From an uncultured delta proteobacterium (lineage in GTDB: Bacteria > Myxococcota_A > Polyangia > Polyangiales > Houyiibacteriaceae): DNA of 64,000 nt. Positions within the stretch are counted from its first letter, which is position 1. Each line of letters opens with the position of its first letter. Made by a program: the position numbers and the translations under genes. The notes beneath the pieces are model-generated. The model saw only the letters and a program-made list of their open reading frames with translations, was not told the origin of the DNA and did not search any database. The stretch spans positions 81,007 through 145,006 of the forward strand of contig CAVQHC010000015.1 of the NCBI GenBank assembly GCA_963712235.1, in the 5' to 3' direction. Shown piece after piece: positions 1 to 58,330 of the stretch.

Positions 1-1193
1 GGGTCGCCCAGGACATGAAGCTCCGGAATCGAGCGAATGCCGTCTCGGATCTTCTCGCCGGTTTCGAGGATTCGGCGACTTGCGTCGAGGTAGCCGCTCT
101 CTCCCATCGACACCATCGCCGCCCAGCAAGCGGCGCTGAGCGCGCCCGGCCGACTCCCCGCGAACGTCGGCGAGAAGTAAAGCCCGCCGGGCCAGTCCGC
201 GACCGTGTAGTACTGATAGTGGCGGAGGTCGGGGTCTCGGTAGAGTACGACACTCGTCCCTTTGGCCGCGTAGCCGTACTTGTGCGTGTCGGCAGACATG
301 GAGGTCACACCTGGCAGGCGAAAATCGAAGGGCGGAACGTCGTAGCCGAGCTTCTCGGCCCAGGGCAGGATGAAGCTACCGAGGCATGCGTCGGTGTGGA
401 ACCCGATTCCGCGTTTGCGCGCGAGCTCCGAAAGCTCTTCGATGGGATCGATCGCACCATGCGGAAACGAGACCGCCGACCCGACGATACAAACGGTGTT
501 TCGGGTGATCGCCTTCTTCGTTGCTGGGACGTCTGCACGATAGTCTGAATCCACCGGGACCTTCACCAGCTTGATGCCGAAATACTGCGCGGCTTTGTCG
601 AACGCTGCATGCGCGGTGGTGGGCACGAGCAACTCCGGGGAGGTGATCCCTTTCGTTTCGCGCGCCCAGTCGCGGTAGCTGCGCATCGCGAGCAGGATGG
701 ATTCAGTCCCACCGCTCGCAACCGCCCCACAGACCTGAGCAGGCCGAGCCTGCTTGGCGCCGAGCATGTTGGCGGTCATCGATACGATTTCAGCTTCGTA
801 TTTTGCGATGCTCGGCCAGAGGTCGGAGTGGAGCGGATTCGTTTGGGAGGTGATTGCGTACGCCTCGTTGAGAAACGCGATGTGCTCCGGATCGCCGTGA
901 TACACGGCCCCTGAGACGTAGCCGTCCTTCCAGCGGTCCGCCTCGCGCCGGTCGAGATCCCGTAGCGTATCTAGAATTTCCGCTCGGGGTTTCCCATCTG
1001 CCGGCAAGTCCGCGTACGATTCCACCTCGCCTTCGTACGGCTTTGCCGACTTACGAAGCTCGTCCATGATCGGTGCATACTCGGCGTTGATTTTGTCTCT
1101 AACGATCGAAAAACGCTTCGCGTAGCGGTACAGGCGCGCCGCCAGGGGCTCGAGCGGGCCGAGCTTGACGTTCGCGAGGTCTTTGATGTCCAT
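1..1193 (-). CDS. PLP-dependent group II decarboxylase family protein, sphingosine-1-phosphate lyase-like (3' end runs off the window)
   Basis: Not in the ORF track; translated by hand from ATG at 1193: [17 protein letters not shown]...[10 protein letters not shown]...NPLHSDLWP...[10 protein letters not shown]...[13 protein letters not shown]...HTDACLG...SADTHKYG (PLP Lys)...[18 protein letters not shown], motifs typical of S1P lyases. Confidence 0.85.
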
Positions 1194-1243
1194 GAGCCCT
1201 CCGTACCGCAGCCCCGAGCCCTTCGCTAGCCCTGGCCGCGCGC

Positions 1244-2815
1244 CTAGCCGTTGAGGCGACGGTACATGGCCGTGTTGTTCTTTCGGATTTCCAGGAATGC
1301 CCTGTAGAGTTCGTGGTAGATCGGCCCGTTGTTGCGATTCGGCGTGTAGCGCTTCTCGATGGGGACCCTCGAGGGGATGTCCTCGACAGCCAGCTTCCCG
1401 AGACCTACAGCCGCGACGAACGCAGCTCCGCGGACGTTCGCGGACAGAGGGTCCGCGACGCAGTCGATCGGACGGTTCAAGATGTCCGCGAAGATCTGGC
1501 ACCAGAGCTGCGACTTTGCTCCGCCGCCGATGAACCGGATTTCCTCGAACGGCCGGCCGATGAACGACTCGACACCGCCCATGAGCCAGCGAGTGTTGTA
1601 CGCGACGCCCTCCATGACCGCGCGGATCATGTGGGCACGAGTCGTTCTCAAGGACACGTTCGAGAACGCCGCCCGGAGGTTGTGGTCGGCGACCGGCGTG
1701 TGCTCGCCGTACAGCCAGGGCGTGAAGATCACTTTGTCGCTTCCCGCAGGCGCCTCTTCGGCGAGCTGGTTGAAGCGATCCAATGCATCCTCGGGCGCCC
1801 CACCCGGGGCCAGCACGTCGTCGCGGCAAAACACACTGTCGCGGAGCCATGTCATGCAGGCGCCGGCGGTTTCTTGCTCGTTGCCAATGAAGTACCGCCC
1901 CGGCAGCGCGGATGGAAGCGATGCCATGTTGTGAATCAGGTCGGTCTTTTTGAATGGCACGTGGCAGGTCAACCAAGAGGATGTTCCGACGTAGAGGTGC
2001 CCTTCGAAGTCGCCGACGGCGCCCGAGCCCACCGCGGCGGCAGGCACATCCGGCGTTCCTCCGACCACCCGGGTGTCTTCGTTCAGCCCGAGCTCCGCGG
2101 CGGCCGTGGGAGTCAACGGTCCGATCACATCGACGGAGCGCGTGAGGTCGGGGAGCTTCTCCCTCGGAATGGTCGTTTGCGCGAGCAGTTTGTCGTCGTA
2201 ATTGATGTTGTTGATGTCACGGTTGTCGGTGACCCAATGGAGCGCGATGGAGTCGACCGTTGCCATGAACCTTCCGGTGAGTCGAAGGTTCAGATAGTCC
2301 TTGGGTTCCATGAACTTGTACGCCGCTGCATAGATTTCCGGTCGCTCGTGACGAAGAAACAGAATGTGCGCAACCGGCTCTTTCCCGGCGAGGCTCGGGA
2401 TTCCGCCGGTCTTTCGGATCCATCTCTCGAGCTTCAGCGCCCCATAGCCTTGAATCCGAATCAACCCGCCGGCGACTTCCGGCACGTACTTCGCACCACG
2501 CGAGTCCAGCCAGATCATCGCCCTCGAGATTGCGGTCCCAGCTTCGTCTACGGGAACGGTGCCGGCCCATTGCGAGGTCACAGCCACGGCGATGATTCGC
2601 TCCCTCGGAACAAGCTCAAGATCGGTGATCCGCCGTGTCGCGGTCACGATCGCTCGCCACCAATCGTCTGGGTCTTGCTCGGCGCCGCCCCCTTCGCTCA
2701 AGAACAGCTCCGTCGACTCGACCTCAGATGCCAACACCTCGCCTTCGGTGGTGACGAGCGCCACTTTGGGGCCGCTGGTGCCGAGATCGATTGCGAGAAT
2801 ACATTCGGGTTCCAT
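1244..2815 (-). CDS. FGGY-family carbohydrate kinase (xylulokinase-like)
   Basis: [60 protein letters not shown] motifs. Confidence 0.9.
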
Positions 2816-2962
2816 CGATGTTTGCTCCTCGCGTCCTAGTGGTAGCCGTCCATACCTTCCGGAATTGCTCCAGCCGGCGCCCGCTCAAAGCCGCGCGATG
2901 CACACCTCTTGCAGGGAGAATCCGGCCAGGTCGAGGCCAGGCCCTATCGTGCTTCGAATTCG

Positions 2963-3973
2963 CTACTTGGAGGCTGCCTCGACGGCCTTCAAGAGGCTCT
3001 TGCTGAAGACGCCGCGTTCGGCGAGCTGTTCGCGTGCGCTCTTTGCGGCAGCGTCCCAGGCCGCCTGATTCGTCGTCGAATCCACCGCCGTGATGCCGCG
3101 GCCGAGGAGGGTCTCATATGCGCGAGCGTCGTCCCGGCCGACGATTTGGTCGAGCTTGGAGGCGGCGCGCTTAGCGGTTTCGAGCAAGGTCTTCTGGTCC
3201 GCGTTGCTGAGCTCGTCGAACTTCTTTTTACTGATGATCGAGCCGCCCACGATGATGTTGAAGTTGCTCGAGCTCATGTACTTGAGCTTCGTGTACCACT
3301 GGAAAGCAACCGCAGCCATCGCTGAGGCGGGGATGACCTCGAGCCTTCCGTCCTTGAGCCCGGGGAACACACCGGACGCTCCGACTTGCACTGGGTTTGC
3401 ACCGAGAGCCTTGGTGTATGCAAGTGACACCGGGTTGTCCTTGCCGGCCCAGCCAGACTTGCCCGCCAGGTCGGCAGGGGATTTGAACTCGGTCGACGAG
3501 AACACCCGGTTCTTGCCGCCATCTCCCCATGCGAGCAGCTTGAAGCCACCGTCCTCGATCAACTTCTGAAGCTGTCCATCGAGCTTCTCGCGCGCACGAT
3601 CGAGCTGCGCGTCATCGGTGAGCAGTCCGGGAGCCGTGAGCACTTGGAGCTCGGGGGCCACCATGCTCAGGCCGGTGGTCGCAACGCCCGCGGCATCCAG
3701 CTTGCCAGCCTTGATTCGCTTGACCAGATCGCGGTCACTGCCCTCGCTGCCACCTGAAAAGACACGGAGCTCGACCCGGCCTTCGGTCTCTTTCTCAAGA
3801 GTGCGGCTCCAAGCCTTGAGCACCTTCACGAAAGAGGAGCCAGGCGGGGCGAGCGATGCAATCCGGATGACGGTAGCCTTGGGGGCTGGCGCCTGCGAGC
3901 CGGCCGGGCGTCCGGGGACAACGAGGACCGCGACTGTGAGCGCCAAGATTAGTGGAAATTTTCGGTGGTGCAT
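2963..3973 (-). CDS. TRAP transporter substrate-binding protein DctP (TatP-like)
   Basis: Signal peptide; IRIASLAPPGS, TEGRVELRVFSGG, GKLDAAG, LLAWGDGG, ALGANPV, FQWYTKLKY. Confidence 0.85.
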   Translation of the reverse strand: MHHRKFPLILALTVAVLVVPGRPAGSQAPAPKATVIRIASLAPPGSSFVKVLKAWSRTLEKETEGRVELRVFSGGSEGSDRDLVKRIKAGKLDAAGVATTGLSMVAPELQVLTAPGLLTDDAQLDRAREKLDGQLQKLIEDGGFKLLAWGDGGKNRVFSSTEFKSPADLAGKSGWAGKDNPVSLAYTKALGANPVQVGASGVFPGLKDGRLEVIPASAMAAVAFQWYTKLKYMSSSNFNIIVGGSIISKKKFDELSNADQKTLLETAKRAASKLDQIVGRDDARAYETLLGRGITAVDSTTNQAAWDAAAKSAREQLAERGVFSKSLLKAVEAASK

Positions 3974-4010
3974 ATCGACTCAGGGTTGGACGGCGCGAAG
4001 CCGTGGTTGT

Positions 4011-5015
4011 TCATTTCTCGGAGGCGAGCTTCGTGACCTCAGCAAGTAGGCTCTTGCTATACACTCGCCCTGCAAGCTGCTGGCGCGCCTGCGTGGCAAC
4101 GGCATCCCACTCGGCCTGGTGAGGGCTGAGGTCGACGACGCTGATACCCCGTTCGATCAGGGTCCGGTACGCCTTGTCGTCGTCACGAAGTACAATTCTA
4201 TCCATTGCGCGCGCGCCGCGCTCCGCCGTGTCGCGAAGGATGTCCTGGTCCCTCGGCGTCAGCCGGTCGAACACTTCCTTCTTGATGATCGAGCCGCCGA
4301 TGAGGATATTGAAATTCTGCTTCGCCATGTAGTTGAGCTTCGTGTACCACTGAATTGCAACGGCCATGATGCAAGAGCTCGGGACCGTATCGATCATACG
4401 CGTCTGCAGCCCTCCGTACACCTCGTTGGCGCCGACGCGCACGGGGTTGGCGCCGATCACGGCCAGAAAGCCCGCGAATACCGGATCATCTTTCCAGGCC
4501 CAAGGACGGCCCGATTTGAGATCGCTGGGCCGTGCAAATGGCCTGGCCGAAAACAGACGGTTTTTGCCCCCATCGCCCCAAGTCAGGAGCTCGAATCCAG
4601 CGCTTCGGAACATTTCTTCAAATCGTGGCCGAAGCTCTGTTCGAACATGAACGAGCTGATCTATTTCGGTGATCAGACCGGGCGCGGTCAGAACCAAAAT
4701 CGGACGCACGACCATGCCCATGCCCGTCGTGGTGATCCCCGCGGCGTCGATTTGCCCCGCTCGGATCTTTCGGATGAAGTCGCGTTCGTCGCCCTGGCTA
4801 CCGCCAGTATAAAATCGCAGCTCGGCTCGGCCTTCGGTCTCCTTCTTGAAGGTGCGGCCCCAGGCTTTGAGGATTTTGCCGAACGCCGAGCTCGGCGGCG
4901 CGAGAGACGCATAGCGAATCAAGATGGGACCGTCGGCCGCGGCGTTGGAGACGTTCTTGCCCGGTAAGAATAGGGCGGCGATCGTGAAGGCAATTGCAAA
5001 GGGACGCTTCCACAT
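4011..5015 (-). CDS. TRAP transporter substrate-binding protein DctP (TatP-like), tandem paralog
   Basis: Signal peptide from ATG 5015 (MWKRPFAIAF); ASLAPPSS, TEGRAELRFYTGGSQGDE, GQIDAAG, LTWGDGG, IQWYTKLNY; collinear with the neighbouring paralog. Confidence 0.85.
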   Translation of the reverse strand: MWKRPFAIAFTIAALFLPGKNVSNAAADGPILIRYASLAPPSSAFGKILKAWGRTFKKETEGRAELRFYTGGSQGDERDFIRKIRAGQIDAAGITTTGMGMVVRPILVLTAPGLITEIDQLVHVRTELRPRFEEMFRSAGFELLTWGDGGKNRLFSARPFARPSDLKSGRPWAWKDDPVFAGFLAVIGANPVRVGANEVYGGLQTRMIDTVPSSCIMAVAIQWYTKLNYMAKQNFNILIGGSIIKKEVFDRLTPRDQDILRDTAERGARAMDRIVLRDDDKAYRTLIERGISVVDLSPHQAEWDAVATQARQQLAGRVYSKSLLAEVTKLASEK

Positions 5016-5035
5016 GCTCACAGCCGGACCCCTCA

Positions 5036-5653
5036 CTACAAGCCGAGCGCCGGAACCAATCGCCGCCCCAGGAAATCCCGAAGCTCGCCCTCACTCCGCA
5101 CTGGCTCGGGGGCTGCCAGTAAGGAGAGGATCATCCGGAGCATGAACTCCATTGCTTCGGTGGCTTCTTCCTCGTCCCAGCCAGTCGATTCGATGATCTC
5201 GCTGAGCGCGACGCGCGTGAACATGATCGAGGCTGGCTGGGTGAAACCCTGCAGTAGGTAGGCGTCGAACATCGCGGGTTGCCACACCTCTCGAAGGACG
5301 GCGTTCTCTCGAATGGCGCGCAATGTGAAAAGAGTGGCCTCGACGACTTTGTCGCCGGGGTCGGAGAAGGCTCGGATGTGCTCCTGAACTTCATTGGCGA
5401 GGCGGAGCCCAGCCTGAAGCAGAACCGAGCGGATGAGCTCTTCTCGATCTTTGAAGTAGCGATACACCGTCGGTCGGCTCACGCCCGCTTCGAGTGCGAC
5501 ATGGGCGATCCCTGTGGCGGGGATCCCATTCCGTGCGATGCAGCTCGCTGCAACCTCGAGCAGCCGCTCGCGCGCGGCTGCAGGCTCCGGGCGATCCCCA
5601 TCCCAGGGCTCGCGCTGCTTGCTGCGAGTTTCTCCTTCGGCGTTTCGCGTCAT
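5036..5653 (-). CDS. TetR/AcrR family transcriptional regulator
   Basis: N-terminal HTH: RERLLEVA...VALEAGVSRPTVYRYFKDREEL. Confidence 0.9.
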   Translation of the reverse strand: MTRNAEGETRSKQREPWDGDRPEPAAARERLLEVAASCIARNGIPATGIAHVALEAGVSRPTVYRYFKDREELIRSVLLQAGLRLANEVQEHIRAFSDPGDKVVEATLFTLRAIRENAVLREVWQPAMFDAYLLQGFTQPASIMFTRVALSEIIESTGWDEEEATEAMEFMLRMILSLLAAPEPVRSEGELRDFLGRRLVPALGL

Positions 5654-6350: not shown

Positions 6351-6492
6351 TCAATGCTGTTTTAGGTGTAGAGCGTGTCCCTTTCGTTCGCTGTATCGAT
6401 GCTCACTTAATTCGCAATTTTGCTGAGCTGCTCCCATTTTCTTGTTGGCTGATAGCGGAAGTTTTCGTCATGATTGGAAATAGGAGAATTTC

Positions 6493-7587
6493 ATGGCTTT
6501 TCGCTCGCTTGCGCTTTCGGTAGGTTTGCTCGTCATTTTGTGGGGTTGCGGAGAGTCTCCGGGCGATCCCCGAATCAGCGGTGGCTCCTCGGGAAGCGGT
6601 GGCACGGCGGGCACTGCGGGCTCGGGCGCAACCGGGGGCTCTGGGGGTTCTGGGGGTTCGGGCGGCGGCGGCTGCGTATTTGGCTGTGGGGGCAGCGGCG
6701 GCGCGGCAGGCTCGGGCGGCACGGCGGGCTCCGGCGGTTCAGCGGGCTCCGGTGGGACGGCAGGCTCCGGCGGGTCCTCTGGCAGCGGCGGCGGCGGAGT
6801 CGTCGACTGCACCACCAGCGCCCTGTGTCTCTCCTGCCCGAGCGGGAGCTTCTGCGAAACCAACGGCGATTGCTCCGTCGGGTTCTCTTGTATCGAAACG
6901 GGCTGTGACGACGACGGCGGCCAGCCGCTGAAGCAATGTACGTTTGCGGGCGGCGGTGCGTGCGAGAGCAGTGCGATGTGCGCGAACGGTCGCGAGTGCG
7001 TCGACGTACCCGGAGAGGGCAAACGCTGCGTCAAGACCACGCCAGGCTGCGACACGAGCTTCGATTGTGTGCTCGGCTTTGACTGCGAGAACGGAAACTG
7101 CGTCGACCGTCGCGTCCCCTGCGACCCACAAGACGAGCAGTGCCCGAAGAACCACGTTTGTGGGGGCACCACGAACTCGAACTTCTGCCGGCGGATCCAG
7201 CAAGACTGCGAGTTCGACTTCGACTGCGCCGACCTGGCTCCTCGCTGCGAGGACATCGACGGCGACTCGAGGAAAGAGTGCGCCGGTACCTTTGATCTGA
7301 ACGATCCGATGTCCAATGCTTGCACCAACGCCCAGTGCGAAAGTGCCTCGGCGCCCGTTTGCGAAGCGGCCAGTTTCGGAAGCACGACGCAGTGCGGCCA
7401 GTACGGACTTTGCGTCGGAGATGAGGACTGCGCGGCGGGCTTCAGCTGCCTCGGGCTTTGGCCGGATGGACGCATGGAATGTGTGCCGGACGGTGGGAGC
7501 TGTTCGAGCTTTGCCGACTGCGCGCCGCAACAGGTCTGCGCATCCCCACGAGGTGGGGGCGTGCCCAGCTGCCAGGCGGGATTGTAG
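6493..7587 (+). CDS. Cys-rich lipoprotein with Gly/Ser linker (paralog 1)
   Basis: AGGAG RBS; lipobox LWGC; GGSGG linker; Cys-rich repeats; DIDGD Ca-binding-like motif. Confidence 0.8.
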   Translation: MAFRSLALSVGLLVILWGCGESPGDPRISGGSSGSGGTAGTAGSGATGGSGGSGGSGGGGCVFGCGGSGGAAGSGGTAGSGGSAGSGGTAGSGGSSGSGGGGVVDCTTSALCLSCPSGSFCETNGDCSVGFSCIETGCDDDGGQPLKQCTFAGGGACESSAMCANGRECVDVPGEGKRCVKTTPGCDTSFDCVLGFDCENGNCVDRRVPCDPQDEQCPKNHVCGGTTNSNFCRRIQQDCEFDFDCADLAPRCEDIDGDSRKECAGTFDLNDPMSNACTNAQCESASAPVCEAASFGSTTQCGQYGLCVGDEDCAAGFSCLGLWPDGRMECVPDGGSCSSFADCAPQQVCASPRGGGVPSCQAGL

Positions 7588-7589
7588 CC

Positions 7590-8771
7590 ATGAGCTCTAT
7601 CGCAAACGCTCAACATCGCAGCGCGTCATCCGCAGCCCATTGGCGCACGCTTGGCCTTCTCTTGCTCGCAGCCACGGTCGGCTGTGGTGAGGAACCGAAT
7701 GGTCCCCGCGTTGGAGGCGGTACCTCGGGCACGGGCGGCTCAGGGGGAGATGGCTGCGTATTTGGCTGCGGGGGCTCTGGTGGTTCGCCGGGCTCCGGCG
7801 GTTCGGCAGGCACTGGCGGGATTGTGGGCACGGGCGGCTCAGGGGGAGATGGCTGCGTATTTGGCTGCGGGGGCTCTGGCGGCTCGGCGGGCTCCGGAGG
7901 AACCGCGGGCTCAGCGGGCACCGGAGGCATCGGCGGATCGGCTGGCGTCGGTGGGACCGGCGGCGCTGGCGAGTGCGTAACCAACGCGCTCTGCCACACT
8001 TGCCCTACGAACTTCCTTTGCGCGAGCGACGACGATTGTGCGTTCAGCGGCTATGTCTGTGTCGCTTCGGGTTGTGCGACCAACGGCGGGAATCCGATCA
8101 AGCAGTGTGTACCCGCGTGGGCGGGTTCCTGCTCCAGCGACGCGGACTGCCCAAACCAGAGCGACTACGATTGCTTGAAAGTTGGTGCGGGGGGCGAGCG
8201 ATGCGTTCGGGTCACGAGCGGATGCAACCCTGCTACCGAAACCTACGACTGCGCGCCCGGTTTCTCCTGCGAGAGCGGCGCGTGCGCGGACCGTCGGGTA
8301 CCCTGTGGCAGCTACGAGGACTGTCCGAAGAGCCACATTTGCCTCACGACGCCGGTTTCGAAGTACTGCACCCGTGTCAGTCGCACGTGCCACGCCGACG
8401 CCGATTGCTCATGGCTCGGAAACGCACTGGGCAGTTTCTGTGCTGACGTCGATGGTGACGGCGTCGATGAGTGCACCGGCGAACGGGACTCGACAGGCGA
8501 AGCCTGCGTGAGCTCGGATTGCGGCGGCTTGGTCTGCGAGACCGGTGCGGTCGGGTCTGCCGCCACCTGTGGAGACTACGGCCTCTGTCGCGTGAACGGC
8601 GACTGTAGCACCGGGTTCGAATGCCTCGGCCTTTGGCAAGACGGGCGCAGCGAATGCGTGCCCACCGGTGGCACCTGTGACCAAGCAACGGACTGCGATC
8701 CCCAGCAGGTCTGTGCCGCACCCCGAACCGGCAACAACGGGCCGAGTTGTCAGTCCGGTAGCGCACCTTAA
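7590..8771 (+). CDS. Cys-rich lipoprotein with Gly/Ser linker (paralog 2)
   Basis: ATG 7590 directly after the previous stop; lipobox TVGC; shares DRRVPC, CPKxHxC, DxDGD, YGLC, CLGLWxDGRxECVP and QQVCAxPR with paralog 1. Confidence 0.8.
   Translation: MSSIANAQHRSASSAAHWRTLGLLLLAATVGCGEEPNGPRVGGGTSGTGGSGGDGCVFGCGGSGGSPGSGGSAGTGGIVGTGGSGGDGCVFGCGGSGGSAGSGGTAGSAGTGGIGGSAGVGGTGGAGECVTNALCHTCPTNFLCASDDDCAFSGYVCVASGCATNGGNPIKQCVPAWAGSCSSDADCPNQSDYDCLKVGAGGERCVRVTSGCNPATETYDCAPGFSCESGACADRRVPCGSYEDCPKSHICLTTPVSKYCTRVSRTCHADADCSWLGNALGSFCADVDGDGVDECTGERDSTGEACVSSDCGGLVCETGAVGSAATCGDYGLCRVNGDCSTGFECLGLWQDGRSECVPTGGTCDQATDCDPQQVCAAPRTGNNGPSCQSGSAP
7727..7879 (+). repeat. 54-bp exact direct repeat (7727-7780, 7826-7879) encoding GTGGSGGDGCVFGCGGSG
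   Basis: Read directly from the sequence; the GCVFGCGG core also occurs in paralog 1 near 6670. Confidence 0.85.
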
Positions 8772-8780
8772 GGAGTCAAC

Positions 8781-11217
8781 GTGAAAACCCATGCCCTAAC
8801 CCCCTTCATTCTCTTCGCTTTCGCCGTTGCGCTGCCCGCGTGCCAGCAGGACAAATCCACTTCTGCCGGTGCGAGCTCCGCGTCGCTGATCTCGCCCCCG
8901 GCATCCTGCGGAAACGGAGATCCGACCTGCAACGCCACGGCCGATTTTCCCGTGCAGGCCGATCTCACGCACCTTCAATTCTTCAAATGTGCTCTTCTCC
9001 GCGACCGACGGCGCGCTCACGCTACAGGCGGGTAGCGGCAATTTGGTCGACACCGATGGCGATGGCGTGCCCGATCCGGCCGACGACTGCCCGGGGCCCG
9101 GCTGGAAGCTTCCCTGCGACGGTGACCCGAGCAACGATGGCATCTATCAGACCCTCTACTACAACAGCGATACCGACATCACCGTCCGCACTGACCTCGA
9201 CATCACGGGCACCATCGAGAGCGCTGATGCCTACATCCTGATGGACGCTACCGGTTCGATGGGCGGCGAGCAGGTGGAGCTGGTCAACGGCCTTACCTCC
9301 GGGACGCTCATCGCCGACCCGGTCGCATGTCCGGGCGGTGTCGGGACGGGCCTGATCGGCGCGCTGCGTTGCGCGGTTCCCGATCTCTGGCTGGGCGTCG
9401 GGGACTTCAAAGAGGTGTCGTATCTCCCGCACAACAACCGCTTCGACATGGCGCCGTATCATCACTATTTGGACATGACCGACAACGCCCAGCACGTGGC
9501 CGACGCGGTCTCGACATTCCGAGCCGACAACAACAAGGATTACCCGGAGGCGACTAGCCAGGCGCTCTACTCGGTCGTCACCGGGCAAGGCCTCGGAGAT
9601 TTGGTTCCCAATCGAGGCTCTTGTCCTTCGACACCCGCCGGGCGTTGGGGCTACCCTTGCTTCCGACCGACCACTCTTCCCATCATCGTCCTGATCACCG
9701 ATGCGGACATGTGGAACGGCCCGGTCAACAACGGCCACACCTACGGCGATCCGCCCTTTAACGGAACACTGGGTCTTGGGACTCGACTGCCGCCGGTCGA
9801 GCAGTCCCCGAACGTGCTCTACTCGAGCGATCCATTCTCGGCCTGGGATCTCGGTGACATGACCAATAGGTCGATGACCATCATGGGCAGCAACACCAAC
9901 CTCGGAAATGACGCGAAAACCTGGGACGAGGGGGCATGCCTTCAGTGCAGTGGGCCCGACTGCTGGACCGATGGGCGTGATGCATTCCTCAAATTCTCTC
10001 TCAGCAGCCCCAGGGACCTGTTCATTAGTGGCGAAGGGACGGCCTACCATACGACAAATACCGCCCTCTTCGATGCTGCACTTGCTGCCGTGAACTGCAA
10101 TCCGGGCCCCGGTGGCGGCGACTTTTGGGGGCGGTTCGCACAAACGGTGCCTGCAGGGGATTGGTACGCGGTGTCGGACGCTTCGGTTGGCCCAAGCAAT
10201 TCCGTTTGGCAAAGAAGAGGCAACTTCCAGCTTCGCATTCACAACCAGACCGCTGATCCGGGCGGTCACCCGAGCTGGCAGACGGCGGACCTACCGCTCA
10301 CGTGGACGGAGGTCGAAACCGAGCTCCTCGCAACCGGGGTGAAGTTCGTCAACGTCGTCAGTCCGAATGCGGCTGGCCTCATTGCGATTCCGGACGTGAC
10401 TCAGTTGGCCATCGACACGAATTCGCTCGACCAATTCGGCAATCCATTCATCGAGACGATCAACGCTGATGGTACCGGTCTCTCGACCGCGATTCTCGAC
10501 GCCATCCGTTCTTTGGTGGGGGACACCCGCCGCGACATCAGCCTCGTTCCAGAGGATGTCCTCGCAACCGTGGGCGTGGACGAAAGGGGCTTTGTAAAAG
10601 CGGTCACGGCGACCGCATGTCCGACCGCCGGCCTCAACAACTGCCTTGGGGGACAGGGAACCAACATCTGTCAGGGCTGCCTCCAGGACACTGAGATCGA
10701 GTTTTCATTCCGCCTGGGTAATGCCATCGTCGCACCGGCCGCAACTCCGCAGGTCTTCGACTTTGACATGGTCGCGTTTGCGGACGGCACGGTCGAGCTC
10801 GCCAGAATTCCCGTCCGCGTCATGGTGCCGGAGACGGGTGGCTCCTACGGTGCGGGCTTCTACGAGAACACGTACGATGCCGACGTCGTCTGTGAAATGC
10901 CGCCCGAGCGACCCGATTGGGGTGACCTGACTTGGACCGGATCCACACCCTCGGACAGCAGCGTCACGTTCGAGTTCTTCACGGCGGACACGATTGCGGA
11001 TCTCGACACCGTGATTCCGGTCTCGGTCACCTACGCCGATCCAACCGATGCGGCGCCAAAAATCTACGACGTTGGGACCCTGCTGATAGCCGGCGGAGAA
11101 CCCAATTACCGGCCGTACCTTCGGGTGCGCGCGAGACTCGAGGCGTCTACCGACACGTTCAGCACGCCGGTGTTTTCGGGCTGGTCGATGCAGTTCAACT
11201 GCGTGCCGCTCGACTAG
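8781..11217 (+). CDS. Large vWA-domain lipoprotein (one apparent +1 frameshift near 8970)
   Basis: AAGGAG RBS, lipobox LPAC; removing one base at about 8970 joins it to ORF 8989-11217; DTDGDGVPD Ca-binding motif; MIDAS-like ILMDATGSM; PEATSQAL; IVLITDAD. Confidence 0.75.
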
Positions 11218-55061: not shown

Positions 55062-55989
55062 ATGCACCAAGATCCCTTGTCTCGTCGGCTACGATCGGCG
55101 ATTGGCGTGATCTGTATCGTGGTCCTCGGCGGCTGTGACGTCGCGAAGTTCACCGCCGACTCGACGGCAGGATTGTTCACCCGAGCGGCTCCCGCATTCG
55201 AGTCGTACTGGGACTACGACTTGGCCGGCGAAGCGCTTCCGGCAACCGTCGTGCAGTTTGAAGGGCATCCTCCGTGTCGTTCCCGACAACGAGGCGATCT
55301 TGGCGCAGTTGGCGCAGGCCTACATCGCGTACGCATACGGCTGGGTCGAGGCCGATGTCGAGGAGCTCGAGTTCGAGAGCGAGTACGAAGAAGCCGACGT
55401 CCAACGGCAGCGTGCGCGAATCATGTACCTTCGCGCGCTCGACCTGACTCGGCATTGGGTTCGGCTGCACAACGAGGACGTCGACCTCGCTGTTCAGGGG
55501 ACCGTCGCGGATCTCGAGTCCTGGCTGCAGGAGGCGTTCATCGAAAAGGCCGACGCCGAGATGTTGCTCTGGCACGGATATGCCTGGGGCTCCTACATCA
55601 ATACCGCCAAGGATGACATGGCAGTGGTTGCCGATCTCGAATACGCCAAAGCGTTCGTCGCGCGCTCGATCGAGCTCGACGCGGACTACTACAATGCGGC
55701 TGGCTACACGTTCATGGGCGTGGCGACCGCGTCGGAGATGGCGGGCGACATGGAAATGGCGAAGGTCTACTTCGAGAAAGCATTGGCACGTACCGAGAGG
55801 CGCGCGCTCCAGATCCAGCTCAACATGGCCCGCTACTATGCGGTCAAGGAGGGAGATCGGGAGCTCTTCGACAAGCTTCTGAGCGAGGTGATGGACGCCG
55901 AAGACCCTCTTCCCGAGGCACGGCTCGCCAATCGGATGGCCCGCGTGCGCGCAGCCCTTTACATCGAGAACGCAGACCAACTTTTTTAG
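55062..55989 (+). CDS. TRAP-associated TPR lipoprotein TatT (apparent frameshift near 55264)
   Basis: Lipobox LGGC; D.DLA.EALP; AY..YAYGWV; IELD..Y..A; G..E.AK..FEKAL; YAV...DR.LF..LL..V; N.MA..RA; directly upstream of dctQM. Confidence 0.8.
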
Positions 55990-56062
55990 TGATATCGGCC
56001 ACTACCGAAGTTACTCTGCGTAGCTCCGGCGTTTCGAACGAAGCGGCTGCGAAGAGGCAAGA

Positions 56063-56740
56063 GTGAAGCACATCCGCCGTTTAGACAGAGGGCTCGCGCG
56101 CGGCGAGGCGGCAATTGCCGCGACGGTCCTTCTGCTCATGATCCTCGTCGCTGCTACCCAGGCGGCGCTCCGCAATCTCACGAATCTCGATTTCGAATGG
56201 GCCAATCTCGTTCTCGAGCGCATGGACTGGGCCGATTCGTTTCTGCAGAAGGGAACGCTCTGGCTCGCCTTCTTCGGAGCATCTCTTTCGACGTTTGACG
56301 AGAAGCACATCGCCATCGACGTGATTCCTCGCCTCTCTCCGCCTCGTATCAAGCAGCTGCTGCGTGCCATTGTCTGCGTCTTCTCTTCGATCACGTGCTT
56401 CTACCTCGGGCGTGTCTTCTGGCTTTCGGTGCTCAACAATGCGCGAGAGATTCCTCTCGAATACTCGGTGCTCGGACCCACCGACGACATGGTCCACATC
56501 TGCAATGCGCCCATCCAGATCCTTACCGACGCGGGGCTTTCGCGGCCGGACATTTTCTGTGGGCTCAGGAGCGCGCTCGAAGTGTTTGGCGCCACGATGT
56601 CGACCCCCGATGTCGCCCTGCAGCTCATCGTTCCGGCGATGTTCATTTTCATGGCTGCGCGATTCCTGAGTCGTGCGATCGCGGCCAGCTTCGCATTCAC
56701 CAGCAATCGCCTCCCCAAAGACGCCGAAGGGGAGGGCTGA
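56063..56740 (+). CDS. TRAP transporter small permease DctQ
   Basis: LWLAFFGASL....KHIAIDV; four TMs. Confidence 0.85.
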   Translation: MKHIRRLDRGLARGEAAIAATVLLLMILVAATQAALRNLTNLDFEWANLVLERMDWADSFLQKGTLWLAFFGASLSTFDEKHIAIDVIPRLSPPRIKQLLRAIVCVFSSITCFYLGRVFWLSVLNNAREIPLEYSVLGPTDDMVHICNAPIQILTDAGLSRPDIFCGLRSALEVFGATMSTPDVALQLIVPAMFIFMAARFLSRAIAASFAFTSNRLPKDAEGEG

Positions 56741-56743
56741 GCG

Positions 56744-58330
56744 ATGGACACGATTTGGATCGTCCTGCTCACCGTGCTCGCCATCCTCGGCGCGCCCCTC
56801 TTTGCCATCTTCGGTGCGGCGGCGATGCTGCTCTTCGGAGCCCTCCCGGACACGAGCATCACCGGCACCGCGAACGATGTCTTCAGTGAGAAGTTCGCCG
56901 ACTCGCCTCTCCTGGTGACCATTCCCCTGTTCACCTTCGCTGGCTATCTGCTGGCAGAGAGCGGGACCCCGCATCGCTTGGTCAAGGTGTCGCGTGCCTG
57001 GCTCGGCTGGATGCCTGGCGGCCTCGCAATCGTATGCTTGGTGGCCTCGGCCTTCTTCACGACCTTCACCGGCGGCAGTGGCATCACCATCGTCGCCATC
57101 GGCGGGCTTCTCTATCCTGCCCTGGTTGCCGACAAGTACGAGGAGAACTTCTCGCTCGGCCTGGTGACGACCGGTGGCTCGCTCGGCCTTCTGTTCCCAC
57201 CGAGCGTGCCGATGATCATTTACGGCGTCGTCGCCGGCATCATGATCGAAAAGCTCTTTTTGGCGGGCTTGATTCCCGGCATCATCACCGTCGCTGCCCT
57301 CGCGATCTACAGCTCGGCGATCGGCATCAAGCACAAGATGCCGCGCACGGGCTTCAATGTTCGTGAAGCCTTCACGACCCTCTGGGAGGCCAAATGGGAG
57401 GCGCTGCTTCCGATTGCGCTGCTCGGCGGCATGTACAGCGGTCTGCTGCGGATCCACGAGGCCGCAGCGTTCACCGCGATCTACACCCTGGTCATCGAAG
57501 TCTGGATCTACCGCGACGTCAGCTTCCGGAAGGACCTTCCCCGCATCATCCGCGAATCGATGACCTTGGTCGGCGCCATTCTCGCGATCTTGGCGACCGC
57601 GATTGGCTTCACCGCGTTTCTCATTCAGGCGCGCGTGCCGATGATGATTCTCGACGCGATGGAGGGCTTCATCACGTCCCAGGTCATGTTCCTCATCGCC
57701 TTGAACTTCTTCTTGATCGGCGTCGGGATGCTGATGGACATCTTTTCCGCGATCGTCGTCGTGGTGCCGCTCATCGTCCCGATCGCGCTCAGATTTGGCG
57801 TCGACCCTTACCACCTTGGGATCGTCTTTCTGCTCAACCTCGAGATCGGCTACATGACGCCGCCCGTCGGCCTCAACCTCTTCATCTCGAGCTTCCGCTT
57901 CAATAAGCCGATCACCCAGCTCTATCGCTCCGTCTTGCCGTTCATTGGGCTTTTGGGTCTTGCGCTGATCATTGTCACCTACATTCCATCCCTCTCGACC
58001 TGGCTCCCGAGCTTGGTCGAGACCAGCGCCGTGGATCTCAGTTCGGGCAATGAAGACCTGGAAGGCGACTACGATCTGGACCTCGACAGCTTAGAAGGCG
58101 ATGACGACAGCCTCGATCTGGACGACTTGGGAAGCGACGACGAGGAGCTCGACCTGGATTCATTGGAGGGCGACGACGAGGAGCTAGACCTCGATGCCCT
58201 CGAAGGCGACGACGAGGAGTTGGACCTGGACACCCTCGAAGACGGGGACGAAGAGCTCGAGCTGGATGCGCTCGAAGGCGACGAGGACGAGCTAGAATTA
58301 GACGCCGACGAGGCAGAGTCCCCTCCGTAG
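56744..58330 (+). CDS. TRAP transporter large permease DctM with acidic repeat tail
   Basis: IPLFTFAGYLL.ESG, GGLA, TGGSG, GSLGLLFPPS.P.I.Y, TPPVGLNLF. Confidence 0.93.
   Translation: MDTIWIVLLTVLAILGAPLFAIFGAAAMLLFGALPDTSITGTANDVFSEKFADSPLLVTIPLFTFAGYLLAESGTPHRLVKVSRAWLGWMPGGLAIVCLVASAFFTTFTGGSGITIVAIGGLLYPALVADKYEENFSLGLVTTGGSLGLLFPPSVPMIIYGVVAGIMIEKLFLAGLIPGIITVAALAIYSSAIGIKHKMPRTGFNVREAFTTLWEAKWEALLPIALLGGMYSGLLRIHEAAAFTAIYTLVIEVWIYRDVSFRKDLPRIIRESMTLVGAILAILATAIGFTAFLIQARVPMMILDAMEGFITSQVMFLIALNFFLIGVGMLMDIFSAIVVVVPLIVPIALRFGVDPYHLGIVFLLNLEIGYMTPPVGLNLFISSFRFNKPITQLYRSVLPFIGLLGLALIIVTYIPSLSTWLPSLVETSAVDLSSGNEDLEGDYDLDLDSLEGDDDSLDLDDLGSDDEELDLDSLEGDDEELDLDALEGDDEELDLDTLEDGDEELELDALEGDEDELELDADEAESPP
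58076..58305 (+). repeat. About 6.5 imperfect 36-bp tandem repeats encoding L(D/E)LDxLEGDDEE
   Basis: Read from the DctM C-terminal translation and DNA. Confidence 0.85.

Follow-up and report, generated by a model that had tools for sequence, protein, structure and literature searches.

At the start of the DNA stretch analyzed here (64,000 nt, referred to as the window), a marine myxobacterium encodes a kinase of the FGGY family directly upstream of a homolog of sphingosine-1-phosphate (S1P) lyase. Known sphingosine kinases belong to the diacylglycerol-kinase family (excerpts of PMC6148460). Does the FGGY enzyme supply the lyase with its phosphorylated substrate, and is that substrate a long-chain sphingoid base? 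We give an even chance to the view that the surrounding operon takes up amino-alcohols resembling sphingosine, phosphorylates them and then cleaves them, with a type of kinase that is not known to serve this purpose. The action of the kinase is a prediction.

The gene string and its extent

Five co-oriented ORFs are found on the minus strand. The first gene codes for a TetR-family regulator (5036..5653; 205 aa), assigned by its N-terminal helix-turn-helix domain (PF00440, 5e-13). It is followed by two TRAP-type periplasmic binding proteins, DctP_a (4011..5036; 341 aa; PF03480, 1e-29) and DctP_b (2963..3973; 336 aa, with a signal peptide; PF03480, 5e-36), by the FGGY-family kinase FGGY1 (1244..2815; 523 aa; Pfam FGGY_N, 1.8e-38, and FGGY_C, 1.5e-30) and by the S1P lyase ortholog SPL1 (3..1193 in the window). 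In this order, the intergenic gaps are -1, 37, 147 and 50 nt, and Pfam and NCBIfam searches agree on the family of all five genes. The closely spaced, co-oriented genes reported in a preliminary description of this DNA are thus real. The unit is, however, longer than described there. SPL1, which starts with an ATG at 1193 behind GGAGG, crosses the window edge: the window contains no more than the first 397 of 523 codons, and the gene extends 378 nt past window position 1 (the whole gene is G000:C15:80631-82199, equivalent to L003:13629-15200). The string then runs on with a gene for a DUF1295 membrane protein (2-nt gap after SPL1) and with ORFs of 225 aa (lipoprotein-like) and 352 aa, and ends against convergent mreB-mreC-mrdA-rodA genes. 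A consensus scan returned 8 terminator-like sites, with 7.1 expected from shuffled sequence, which is no excess.

The TetR protein reached no NCBIfam equivalog, and no convincing operator was found for it. It probably represses the operon until the substrate or a product of the pathway is present. DUF1295 is related to steroid 5-alpha-reductases, and the DUF1295 and MAPEG families handle lipids. The nearest Atlas clusters of the DUF1295 protein also bear Steroid_dh, which is a lead only.

The lyase, the kinase and a second pair

It had been proposed to check whether SPL1 groups with S1P lyases or with GAD/TyrDC. It groups with the lyases. The bit scores are 689 for StSPL from Symbiobacterium thermophilum (PDB 3mad, E-value 3.9e-206) and 429 for human SPL (2.5e-127), against 92 for MfnA and 72 for GAD; yeast Dpl1 matches with 6e-120 and the decarboxylases with 4e-25. 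For StSPL, the excerpts of PMC10243590 list K311, H310, G168, T169, S353, D274, H201, Y105, N126, H129, A103 and K317. SPL1 keeps all 12 of these residues; ten are invariant in 41 orthologs, and the other two are nearly invariant. The Schiff-base lysine and the PLP-binding residues are present (ADTHKYGY at 301, GGTES at 161, TAHAAF at 193, HTDACLG at 266 and AGSRPG at 345), as are the residues for the substrate phosphate and phosphoethanolamine (A96, Y98, N119, H122 and K311, corresponding to A103, Y105, N126, H129 and K317 of StSPL). Judged by its clade and its active-site residues, SPL1 is a true S1P lyase. Cleavage of S1P itself has been shown only for orthologs, namely in vitro for StSPL and the Burkholderia enzymes, of which those from B. 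thailandensis also complement yeast devoid of the lyase (excerpts of PMC6148460).

FGGY1 scores 133 bits against FGGY_N and 107 bits against FGGY_C. Upon alignment to E. coli XylB, its ATPase motifs and its catalytic Asp are intact (the stretch at 256, GTSSW and IGGGAKS). The AF2 model (pLDDT 91.6) has an ordinary FGGY fold; the nearest solved structure is 3gbt (TM 0.83 at 25% identity), and the fold neighbors are gluconate, xylulose and glycerol kinases. None of the 12 NCBIfam FGGY specificity models, all of which stand for sugars or polyols, reaches its cut-off. The best partial matches are XylB (271 vs 380 bits) and GntK. The preliminary description had named a kinase specific for xylulose or another sugar as the finding that would speak against an amino-alcohol kinase, and its proposal withstands this comparison. 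In public annotation, FGGY1 is a “xylulokinase” or an “FGGY-family carbohydrate kinase”. FGGY1 is not the glycerol kinase of this genome. Apart from the FGGY proteins of the two lyase pairs, the genome codes for a single one, a bona fide GlpK (714 bits vs a cut-off of 498). All characterized FGGY kinases known to us act on small sugars or polyols. Pfam detects only FGGY domains in FGGY1 and no DAGK_cat domain; the enzyme may work like a long-chain base (LCB) kinase, yet outside the DAGK catalytic-domain family.

The same genome codes for a paralogous pair, in which FGGY2 overlaps SPL2 and a gene for a MAPEG protein follows; no transporter gene accompanies it. SPL2 matches Burkholderia S1PL2021 (5k1r) over its whole length (E-value 1.3e-204). 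At the positions of A103 and H129 of StSPL, it carries Thr and Gln, as does 5k1r in the alignment. In the FGGY tree, the two lyase-paired clades are separate and well supported.

Conservation of the pair and the nature of the substrate

A total of 80 loci with SPL1-type genes were collected (Myxococcota 22, Chloroflexota 22, Thermodesulfobacteriota 17, Spirochaetota 7, three other phyla with 1 each, and 9 unassigned). The 66 loci with 1700 nt or more of DNA available upstream were considered assessable. An FGGY gene is found upstream of the lyase gene, on the same strand and within 2 kb, at 65 of these 66 loci, covering at least seven phyla, so that the pairing postulated in the preliminary description is indeed conserved. 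The pairwise identities of FGGY and SPL proteins are correlated (r = 0.915 over 85 pairs; the maximum of 500 permutations is 0.23). Among 201 Myxococcota genomes, 15 code for an SPL protein with at least 59% identity, and FGGY adjoins in all 15. SPL-family genes occur in 132 genomes of this sample, 112 of which have no adjoining FGGY gene. A literature search found no published description of the FGGY-S1P lyase pairing.

The pair might be a chance neighborhood of a xylulokinase-like sugar kinase and an amino-acid-decarboxylase-like PLP enzyme. The “xylulokinase” annotation would fit, as would the Pyridoxal_deC Pfam match of the lyase and its best NCBIfam match, the tyrosine decarboxylase MfnA. 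The MfnA match is, however, below its cut-off (201 vs 299 bits) and far weaker than the matches to SPL; moreover, the pairing recurs across phyla, the two proteins diverge in parallel, and the pair as a whole has been duplicated in this genome. We consider two unrelated neighbors highly improbable.

The operon as a unit is another matter. While the kinase-lyase pair is widespread, the five-gene set is not a conserved entity. The other genes are confined to close Polyangiales relatives, where binding proteins are found at 12 of 13 assessable loci, DUF1295, 3' of the lyase, at 16 of 16 and TetR at 3 of 7 assessable sister loci. Outside Polyangiales, the pair is mostly found amid unrelated housekeeping genes, without lipid or transport genes.

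At the core, we envisage a two-enzyme module that would phosphorylate and then split a single substrate common to both enzymes. FGGY1 would transfer a phosphate from ATP to the hydroxyl at C1 of a 2-amino-1,3-diol. PLP-dependent SPL1 would then cut the C2-C3 bond by a retro-aldol reaction, yielding phosphoethanolamine and an aldehyde. A long-chain sphingoid base is the most likely substrate, and the DUF1295 protein would then probably handle the resulting fatty aldehyde or enal.

A serious rival is that the same chemistry serves a small water-soluble amino-polyol (serinol, threoninol or a 2-amino-2-deoxy-alditol), the S1P cleavage by orthologs being a side activity. The specificities of the FGGY family in NCBIfam and the fold neighbors of FGGY1 agree with this, and many pair loci are from anaerobes and have no lipid genes around them. 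At six sister loci, the binding-protein genes are separated from the kinase gene by one gene for a class II aldolase and one for a 212-aa protein. The substrates of class II aldolases are small sugar phosphates, and an aldolase inside these operons keeps a small amino-polyol in play. In a spirochaete, a recent duplicate of the paired kinase adjoins a GSA-aminomutase-like aminotransferase and an MtnW-like RuBisCO-like protein, and a Myxococcota relative is part of an aminotransferase-aldolase-FGGY-TetR string (in G042); both arrangements suggest small phospho-sugar chemistry. Ligands other than acids, ethanolamine for instance, are bound by some TRAP binding proteins (excerpts of PMC11713862), which would also fit. 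Against this, both lyase types are close orthologs of enzymes that cleave C18 S1P, and one type works in yeast in vivo. In SPL dimers, the active site is reached only via a narrow hydrophobic tunnel (excerpts of PMC10243590). The membrane proteins encoded after the lyases (DUF1295 and MAPEG) are of lipid-handling families, DctP_a and DctP_b are similar to TatP(T), and TatT is abundant in the genome. On balance, we regard a small natural substrate as unlikely, though far from negligible.

Proposed uptake and comparison with known systems

DctP_a and DctP_b share 51% identity and belong to a paralog family of six members. Both are well above the cut-off of NF037995 (50 bits), with 251 bits for DctP_a and 238 for DctP_b; for PF03480, the scores are 104 and 125 bits. 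In the alignment, the column of the carboxylate-binding Arg is Ala in both proteins (RPWAWKDDPV in DctP_a, with RPWAWKDDP as the motif of its paralog family, and SGWAGKDNPV in DctP_b). Among the five best solved TRAP binding proteins, four have Arg in this column and TatP(T) has Ser. TatP(T) (3u65/4di3), likewise devoid of the Arg, is among the six best solved relatives of DctP_a. The label “TatP-like”, which had been given to the binding proteins from sequence, is thus apt in the sense of an Arg loss common to both of them and the Treponema protein.

The operon has no DctQ or DctM gene. The nearest set (56063-58330) is on the plus strand of the window and consists of DctQ, the small membrane component (56063..56740; PF04290, 5e-11), and DctM, the large membrane component (56744..58330; PF06808, 9.5e-81). 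It is preceded by a TatT-family gene (55135..55986, also plus strand; PF16811, 2.5e-46), the only PDB match of which is 8g52 (E-value 1.7e-8), the palmitate-bound TatT from Enhygromyxa. Long-chain fatty acids are the ligands of TatT proteins, one of which is of marine myxobacterial origin (excerpts of PMC11713862). No DctP gene is found beside this set, which is ca. 50 kb from DctP_a and DctP_b. Profile searches returned 9 DctP, 2 DctM and 3 TatT matches in the genome, and the TatT-adjacent DctP on contig C2 keeps the Arg. For the orphans DctP_a and DctP_b, the set is a candidate membrane part, but since they are not adjacent to any DctQM genes and nine DctP face two DctM, the partnership is a guess. 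In this Polyangiales lineage, the module would be part of an uptake operon: DctP_a and DctP_b would bind an amphipathic compound, with a free long-chain sphingoid base as the likeliest candidate, and pass it to this lipid-type TRAP transporter encoded elsewhere (TatT-DctQ-DctM).

In another reading, the module degrades long-chain bases in order to turn over or detoxify sphingolipids of the cell itself, or membrane-active free bases, rather than to scavenge nutrients; the binding proteins would then have a different function. Myxobacteria are sphingolipid producers. The genome has an alpha-oxoamine synthase with an adjoining SDR gene, and its best NCBIfam match is serine palmitoyltransferase; this match is, however, far below its cut-off (316 vs 640 bits) and tied with BioF. 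The pair lacks a transporter in most phyla, as does FGGY2-SPL2. In this lineage, by contrast, the secreted DctP_a and DctP_b are tightly linked to the pair (the 12 of 13 loci given above), which points to an external substrate, so that we consider internal turnover improbable.

If the substrate is an imported sphingoid base, a wider picture emerges. It is tempting to speculate that the lyase-paired FGGY clades are the missing bacterial sphingoid-base kinases, which non-orthologously replace the eukaryotic DAG-kinase type, co-evolved with both SPL lineages and, in marine myxobacteria, are fed by TatT-TRAP transport via Arg-less binding proteins. This would be a complete oxygen-independent route for consuming the sphingolipid backbones of prey or detritus. 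For this full version, we see somewhat less than an even chance.

Several known systems share parts of this arrangement. FGGY1 has the architecture of FGGY carbohydrate kinases (XylB, GntK, GlpK and LsrK), with a fold of two domains, the catalytic Asp, DxGTS as the phosphate loop and GGGA as the adenosine motif. It differs by having at most 25% identity to solved members, an obligate SPL neighbor and scores below all curated cut-offs. Pseudomonas aeruginosa senses and metabolizes exogenous sphingosine (SphR, sphA and sphBCD). To our knowledge, this system lacks both a kinase and an S1P lyase and has a regulator of the AraC type, compared to TetR here. The TPR-protein-associated TRAP systems (TatT/TatP(T)/TatQ-M from Treponema pallidum and TatT from Enhygromyxa) share the DctP fold devoid of the Arg and the combination of TatT with DctQ-DctM. 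Compared to the Treponema system, the P genes are ca. 50 kb away, tandemly duplicated and part of a six-member family.

With respect to the lyases, SPL1 aligns to StSPL (PDB 3MAD and 3MAU) over residues 41-503, and both are soluble, without an N-terminal membrane helix. The excerpts of PMC6148460 and PMC10243590 do not discuss a kinase partner for StSPL. SPL2 is the ortholog of Burkholderia S1PL2021 (PDB 5K1R), described as a virulence factor that acts on host S1P (excerpts of PMC6148460); a term search of PMC5234717, which deals with this enzyme, found neither “kinase” nor “operon”. SPL2, in contrast, is from a free-living sediment bacterium, and its gene is flanked by that of its own FGGY kinase on the 5' side and by a MAPEG gene on the 3' side. 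The eukaryotic exit from LCB metabolism (SPHK1/2 or Lcb4/Lcb5, then SGPL1 or Dpl1) is a parallel in logic. It has the same two steps and a homologous lyase, and phosphoethanolamine and a fatty aldehyde would be the products here, too. Here, however, the kinase is of the FGGY family, FGGY1 and SPL1 differ from the eukaryotic enzymes in having no membrane anchor as judged from their N-termini, and the genes are organized in an operon that also codes for periplasmic binding proteins and for a TetR regulator.

The gene string and its two enzymes

The source genome (3.75 Mb, 17 contigs, 91% complete) carries at the start of the window the five co-oriented genes that the preliminary description had proposed as a cluster. 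All are encoded on the minus strand, and Pfam and NCBIfam confirm the family of each: a TetR regulator (5036-5653), two TRAP-type periplasmic binding proteins, DctP_a (4011-5036) and DctP_b (2963-3973), the FGGY-family kinase FGGY1 (1244-2815) and the PLP enzyme SPL1 (start at 1193). The intergenic gaps are, in this order, -1, 37, 147 and 50 nt. The genes within the limits first proposed (1-5653) are real, but these limits are too narrow, the string continuing past the window start. The SPL1 gene is truncated by the window edge (the complete protein has 523 aa). A gene for a DUF1295 membrane protein (E 1.5e-51) lies 2 nt behind it, and further on there are two ORFs without a family match and the convergent genes mreB-mreC-mrdA-rodA. 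A consensus scan revealed no excess of terminator-like sites in the string. The ORF that closes it (352 aa, L003:10913-11971, where L003 is the whole SPL1 locus) shares about 250 nt with the 3' end of rodA (L003:10056-11165), which converges on it; despite this overlap, it is conserved in sister loci at 50-79% identity.

Upstream of the TetR gene, three large ORFs (6468-11217; one of 382 aa on the minus strand, two of 437 and 742 aa on the plus strand) lack a Pfam match at E <= 0.001. The search for a TetR operator returned only GC-rich mini-palindromes, and four aligned promoters share no clear conserved palindrome. DNA that is near-identical to this stretch is present in sediment and salt-marsh metagenomes. 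Metatranscriptome contigs (three runs, two studies) match parts of each of the five genes at 90-97%, and one spans the junction of the two binding-protein genes. These contigs derive from relatives, none being 99% alike. They were not counted as evidence of an operon transcript because DNA carry-over is possible and transcript ends are not visible.

SPL1 had been described as an S1P-lyase-like enzyme, and this assignment holds. Among all PDB sequences, it matches the Symbiobacterium S1P lyase, StSPL, with an E-value of 3.9e-206 (689 bits, residues 41-503), followed by human SPL (2.5e-127), the Burkholderia lyase S1PL2021 (1e-122) and yeast Dpl1 (6e-120). A grouping with amino-acid decarboxylases would have been the alternative. 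These matches are far weaker (MfnA 4e-25, glutamate decarboxylase 5e-19), and the active-site residues of an S1P lyase are present, so that this alternative is rejected. SPL1 has every residue listed in a passage on StSPL as binding PLP (K311, H310, G168, T169, S353, D274, H201) or the substrate phosphate/phosphoethanolamine (Y105, N126, H129, A103, K317) (PMC10243590), and these are invariant or nearly so among 41 SPL1 orthologues. S1P cleavage is documented for StSPL and the Burkholderia enzymes, and lyase-deficient yeast is complemented by those from B. thailandensis (PMC6148460).

FGGY1 contains both FGGY domains, and its phosphate loop, catalytic Asp and adenosine motif all align to E. 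coli XylB. AF2 models the protein with confidence (pLDDT 91.6), and the nearest solved folds to this model are gluconate, xylulose and glycerol kinases (TM about 0.8, 19-25% identity). When compared to the 12 NCBIfam FGGY models, FGGY1 stays under the curated cut-off of all of them, the best being XylB (271 vs 380 bits). The genome codes for only two other FGGY proteins, a bona fide GlpK (714 vs 498 bits) and FGGY2 (see below). In public sources, relatives of FGGY1 (6935 clusters at E <= 1e-60 among 8000 candidates scored) are labelled as "xylulokinase" or "FGGY-family carbohydrate kinase".

Conservation and limits of the kinase-lyase pair

A scan with one genome per species yielded 350 relatives of SPL1, of which the best 80 loci were kept. 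They belong to Myxococcota (22), Chloroflexota (22), Thermodesulfobacteriota (17), Spirochaetota (7), Acidobacteriota, Pseudomonadota and Bacteroidota (1 each), with 9 having no assigned phylum. Pairing was assessed in the 66 loci whose lyase has 1700 nt or more of DNA ahead of it. An FGGY gene is found upstream on the same strand and within 2 kb in 65 of these 66, the sole miss being L024. Seven shorter loci have a partial FGGY gene at the contig edge, and seven others have too little DNA to judge. The proposed pairing of FGGY kinase and S1P lyase is thus conserved across several phyla. No further gene family was found to be common to the 80 loci. Pairwise identities of kinases and lyases are correlated (r = 0.915 for 85 pairs; maximum of 500 permutations 0.23), to which shared descent contributes. 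In a FastTree analysis of FGGY proteins (101 rows), the kinases linked to SPL1 relatives form one clade (79 rows, support 94) and those linked to SPL2 relatives another (9 rows, support 100). No lyase accompanies the third clade (7 rows, support 100), whose members (L118, L124, L126, L127, L130-L135) are 40-50% identical to FGGY1; in L127, the gene has a PIG-L-type deacetylase on one side and a saccharopine-dehydrogenase-like gene on the other.

A second, paralogous pair is encoded on contig C17 (L092:8651-12106, minus strand). FGGY2 (520 aa) overlaps the start of SPL2 (474 aa), and a MAPEG-family membrane protein (PF01124, 3e-16) follows. FGGY2 is 37% identical to FGGY1 and SPL2 is 45% identical to SPL1. 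SPL2 is an orthologue of S1PL2021 from Burkholderia (PDB 5k1r, E 1.3e-204). Since SPL1 matches StSPL and SPL2 matches S1PL2021, the two bacterial SPL lineages with experimental validation are both represented in this genome, each with its own FGGY gene ahead. Both lyases also have a membrane-protein gene behind them, DUF1295 in one case and MAPEG in the other. An endonuclease/exonuclease/phosphatase-family gene (L092:7406-8626) converges on the FGGY2-SPL2 cluster, and an aldehyde dehydrogenase gene is encoded 5 kb beyond it.

The pairing does not extend to all SPL-like genes. A match to the SPL family at E <= 1e-60 occurs in 132 of 201 Myxococcota genomes, and an FGGY of the clades described above in only 34. 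Where the lyase is at least 59% identical to SPL1, the kinase gene is alongside in 15 of 15 genomes (with a gap of 1.7 kb in one), and nine Myxococcota genomes have the FGGY2-SPL2 arrangement. When coordinates were read for the 132 genomes, 20 had at least one pair and 112 had only unpaired SPL-like genes. Thus, most SPL-like genes of Myxococcota are not paired with an FGGY gene. Alternative kinases were searched for in 20 Myxococcota loci having an SPL-like gene without an FGGY neighbour (L136-L155; SPL gene recovered in 18, 38-47% identical to SPL1). By blastp, none of their 148 ORFs is an FGGY. Pfam detected neither a DAG-kinase-type nor another small-molecule kinase in 54 flanking proteins (53 of the 66 nearest ORFs and one more), which is uninformative on the substrate source of those lyases. 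An M81/MlrC-type metallopeptidase is encoded directly downstream of the unpaired lyase in 4 of the 20 loci, and a START/polyketide-cyclase-like protein beside it in 3 loci from one genus.

Candidate uptake parts and the nature of the substrate

The surroundings of the pair are lineage-specific. In the 16 closest loci (lyase at least 81% identical to SPL1), a DUF1295 gene comes after the lyase in all 16. DctP genes are located ahead of the kinase in 12 of the 13 loci that could be assessed, and the first gene of the string is a TetR in 3 of 7. The steroid 5-alpha-reductase family also appears on the nearest Atlas clusters of DUF1295, which is only a lead. The DUF1295 protein has no match among PDB sequences, and its AF2 model from 14 close sequences is poor (pLDDT 60.2).

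DctP_a and DctP_b both carry signal peptides and have only remote counterparts among TRAP binding proteins of solved structure (E about 1e-20 to 1e-23); TatP(T) of T. pallidum is within the six best solved matches of DctP_a. In the column of the carboxylate-binding arginine, Arg is found in four of the five top-scoring relatives of solved structure, while both DctP_a and DctP_b have Ala and TatP(T) has Ser. Genome-wide, there are nine matches to DctP, two to DctM and three to TatT; six of the nine DctPs belong to one arginine-less paralogue family with the motif RPWAWKDDP. A TatT-DctQ-DctM set is encoded at 55135-58330 without an adjacent DctP, and DctP_a and DctP_b may be its partners. The sole PDB match of this TatT is the structure of TatT from the marine myxobacterium Enhygromyxa salina. 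According to PMC11713862, long-chain fatty acids are ligands of the TatT proteins of E. salina and T. pallidum, and a role in lipid import is proposed for TatT-TRAP systems. The uptake parts support an amphipathic ligand.

Kinase and lyase probably act successively on a 2-amino-1,3-diol. Aldolase and aminotransferase associations point away from a long-chain base. In six sister loci, a class II aldolase/adducin-fold gene and a 212-aa gene are inserted between DctP_b and the kinase (L005:4411-5741, and at the same position in L006, L008, L011, L016 and L020); the window has only the 147-nt gap. Downstream of the pair in spirochaetes are genes for a TetR, for a recently duplicated copy of the paired kinase, for an aminotransferase resembling GSA aminomutase and for a RuBisCO-like protein that is MtnW-like (L044:11674-15584, L046:10200-11534; also L052, L081 and L083). 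A third-clade FGGY from Myxococcota (L124) is part of an aminotransferase-aldolase-FGGY-TetR string. Such partners are in keeping with phosphorylated sugars or amino-sugars of small size, and a small amino-polyol is the main rival substrate, although we regard it as rather unlikely. For the full reading, in which this operon imports a long-chain sphingoid base as the substrate of kinase and lyase, we see an even balance. The operon contributes candidate uptake parts (arginine-less TRAP binding proteins, TatT-QM), and DUF1295 and MAPEG are candidates for handling the aldehyde product. To decide whether or not the substrate is a lipid, these parts taken together offer the best starting point so far. 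Elsewhere in the genome, an alpha-oxoamine synthase (contig C1, L105:153-2715) with a short-chain dehydrogenase gene directly 3' of it may be a sphingoid-base synthase; the NCBIfam model that it fits best is serine palmitoyltransferase, at 316 bits far under the cut-off of 640 and level with BioF at 314 bits.

Relation to known bacterial S1P lyases

In the literature searched, which leaves subscription journals largely aside, we found neither a link between an FGGY or carbohydrate kinase and a bacterial S1P lyase nor a named bacterial sphingosine kinase. A 2023 review on bacterial sphingolipids describes these steps as diverging and remaining unclear (PMC10626005). The words "kinase" and "operon" do not occur in the Burkholderia lyase paper, and a literature passage on BPSS2022 does not mention the neighbour genes of the Burkholderia lyases. 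The searched literature also has no statement on the natural role of S1P lyases in free-living bacteria or on where these enzymes obtain a phosphorylated substrate. An FGGY partner that is conserved and co-evolves with the lyase offers a directly testable answer. If the sphingoid-base reading is true, a family that bears the label "xylulokinase" in thousands of genomes would need a new assignment, sphingolipid biochemistry would gain a new kinase fold, and sphingoid bases would be suggested as a source of carbon, nitrogen and phosphoethanolamine in sediments.

Bacterial S1P lyases have already been crystallised and are also used as tools. What this window contributes is the operon with arginine-less binding proteins and TetR, together with a candidate link to TatT-QM. 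Its further contributions are the unpaired state of the majority of SPL-like genes in the phylum, the associations with aldolases and aminotransferases, the membrane partners behind both lyases, and the presence of an own FGGY kinase for each of the two bacterial SPL lineages.
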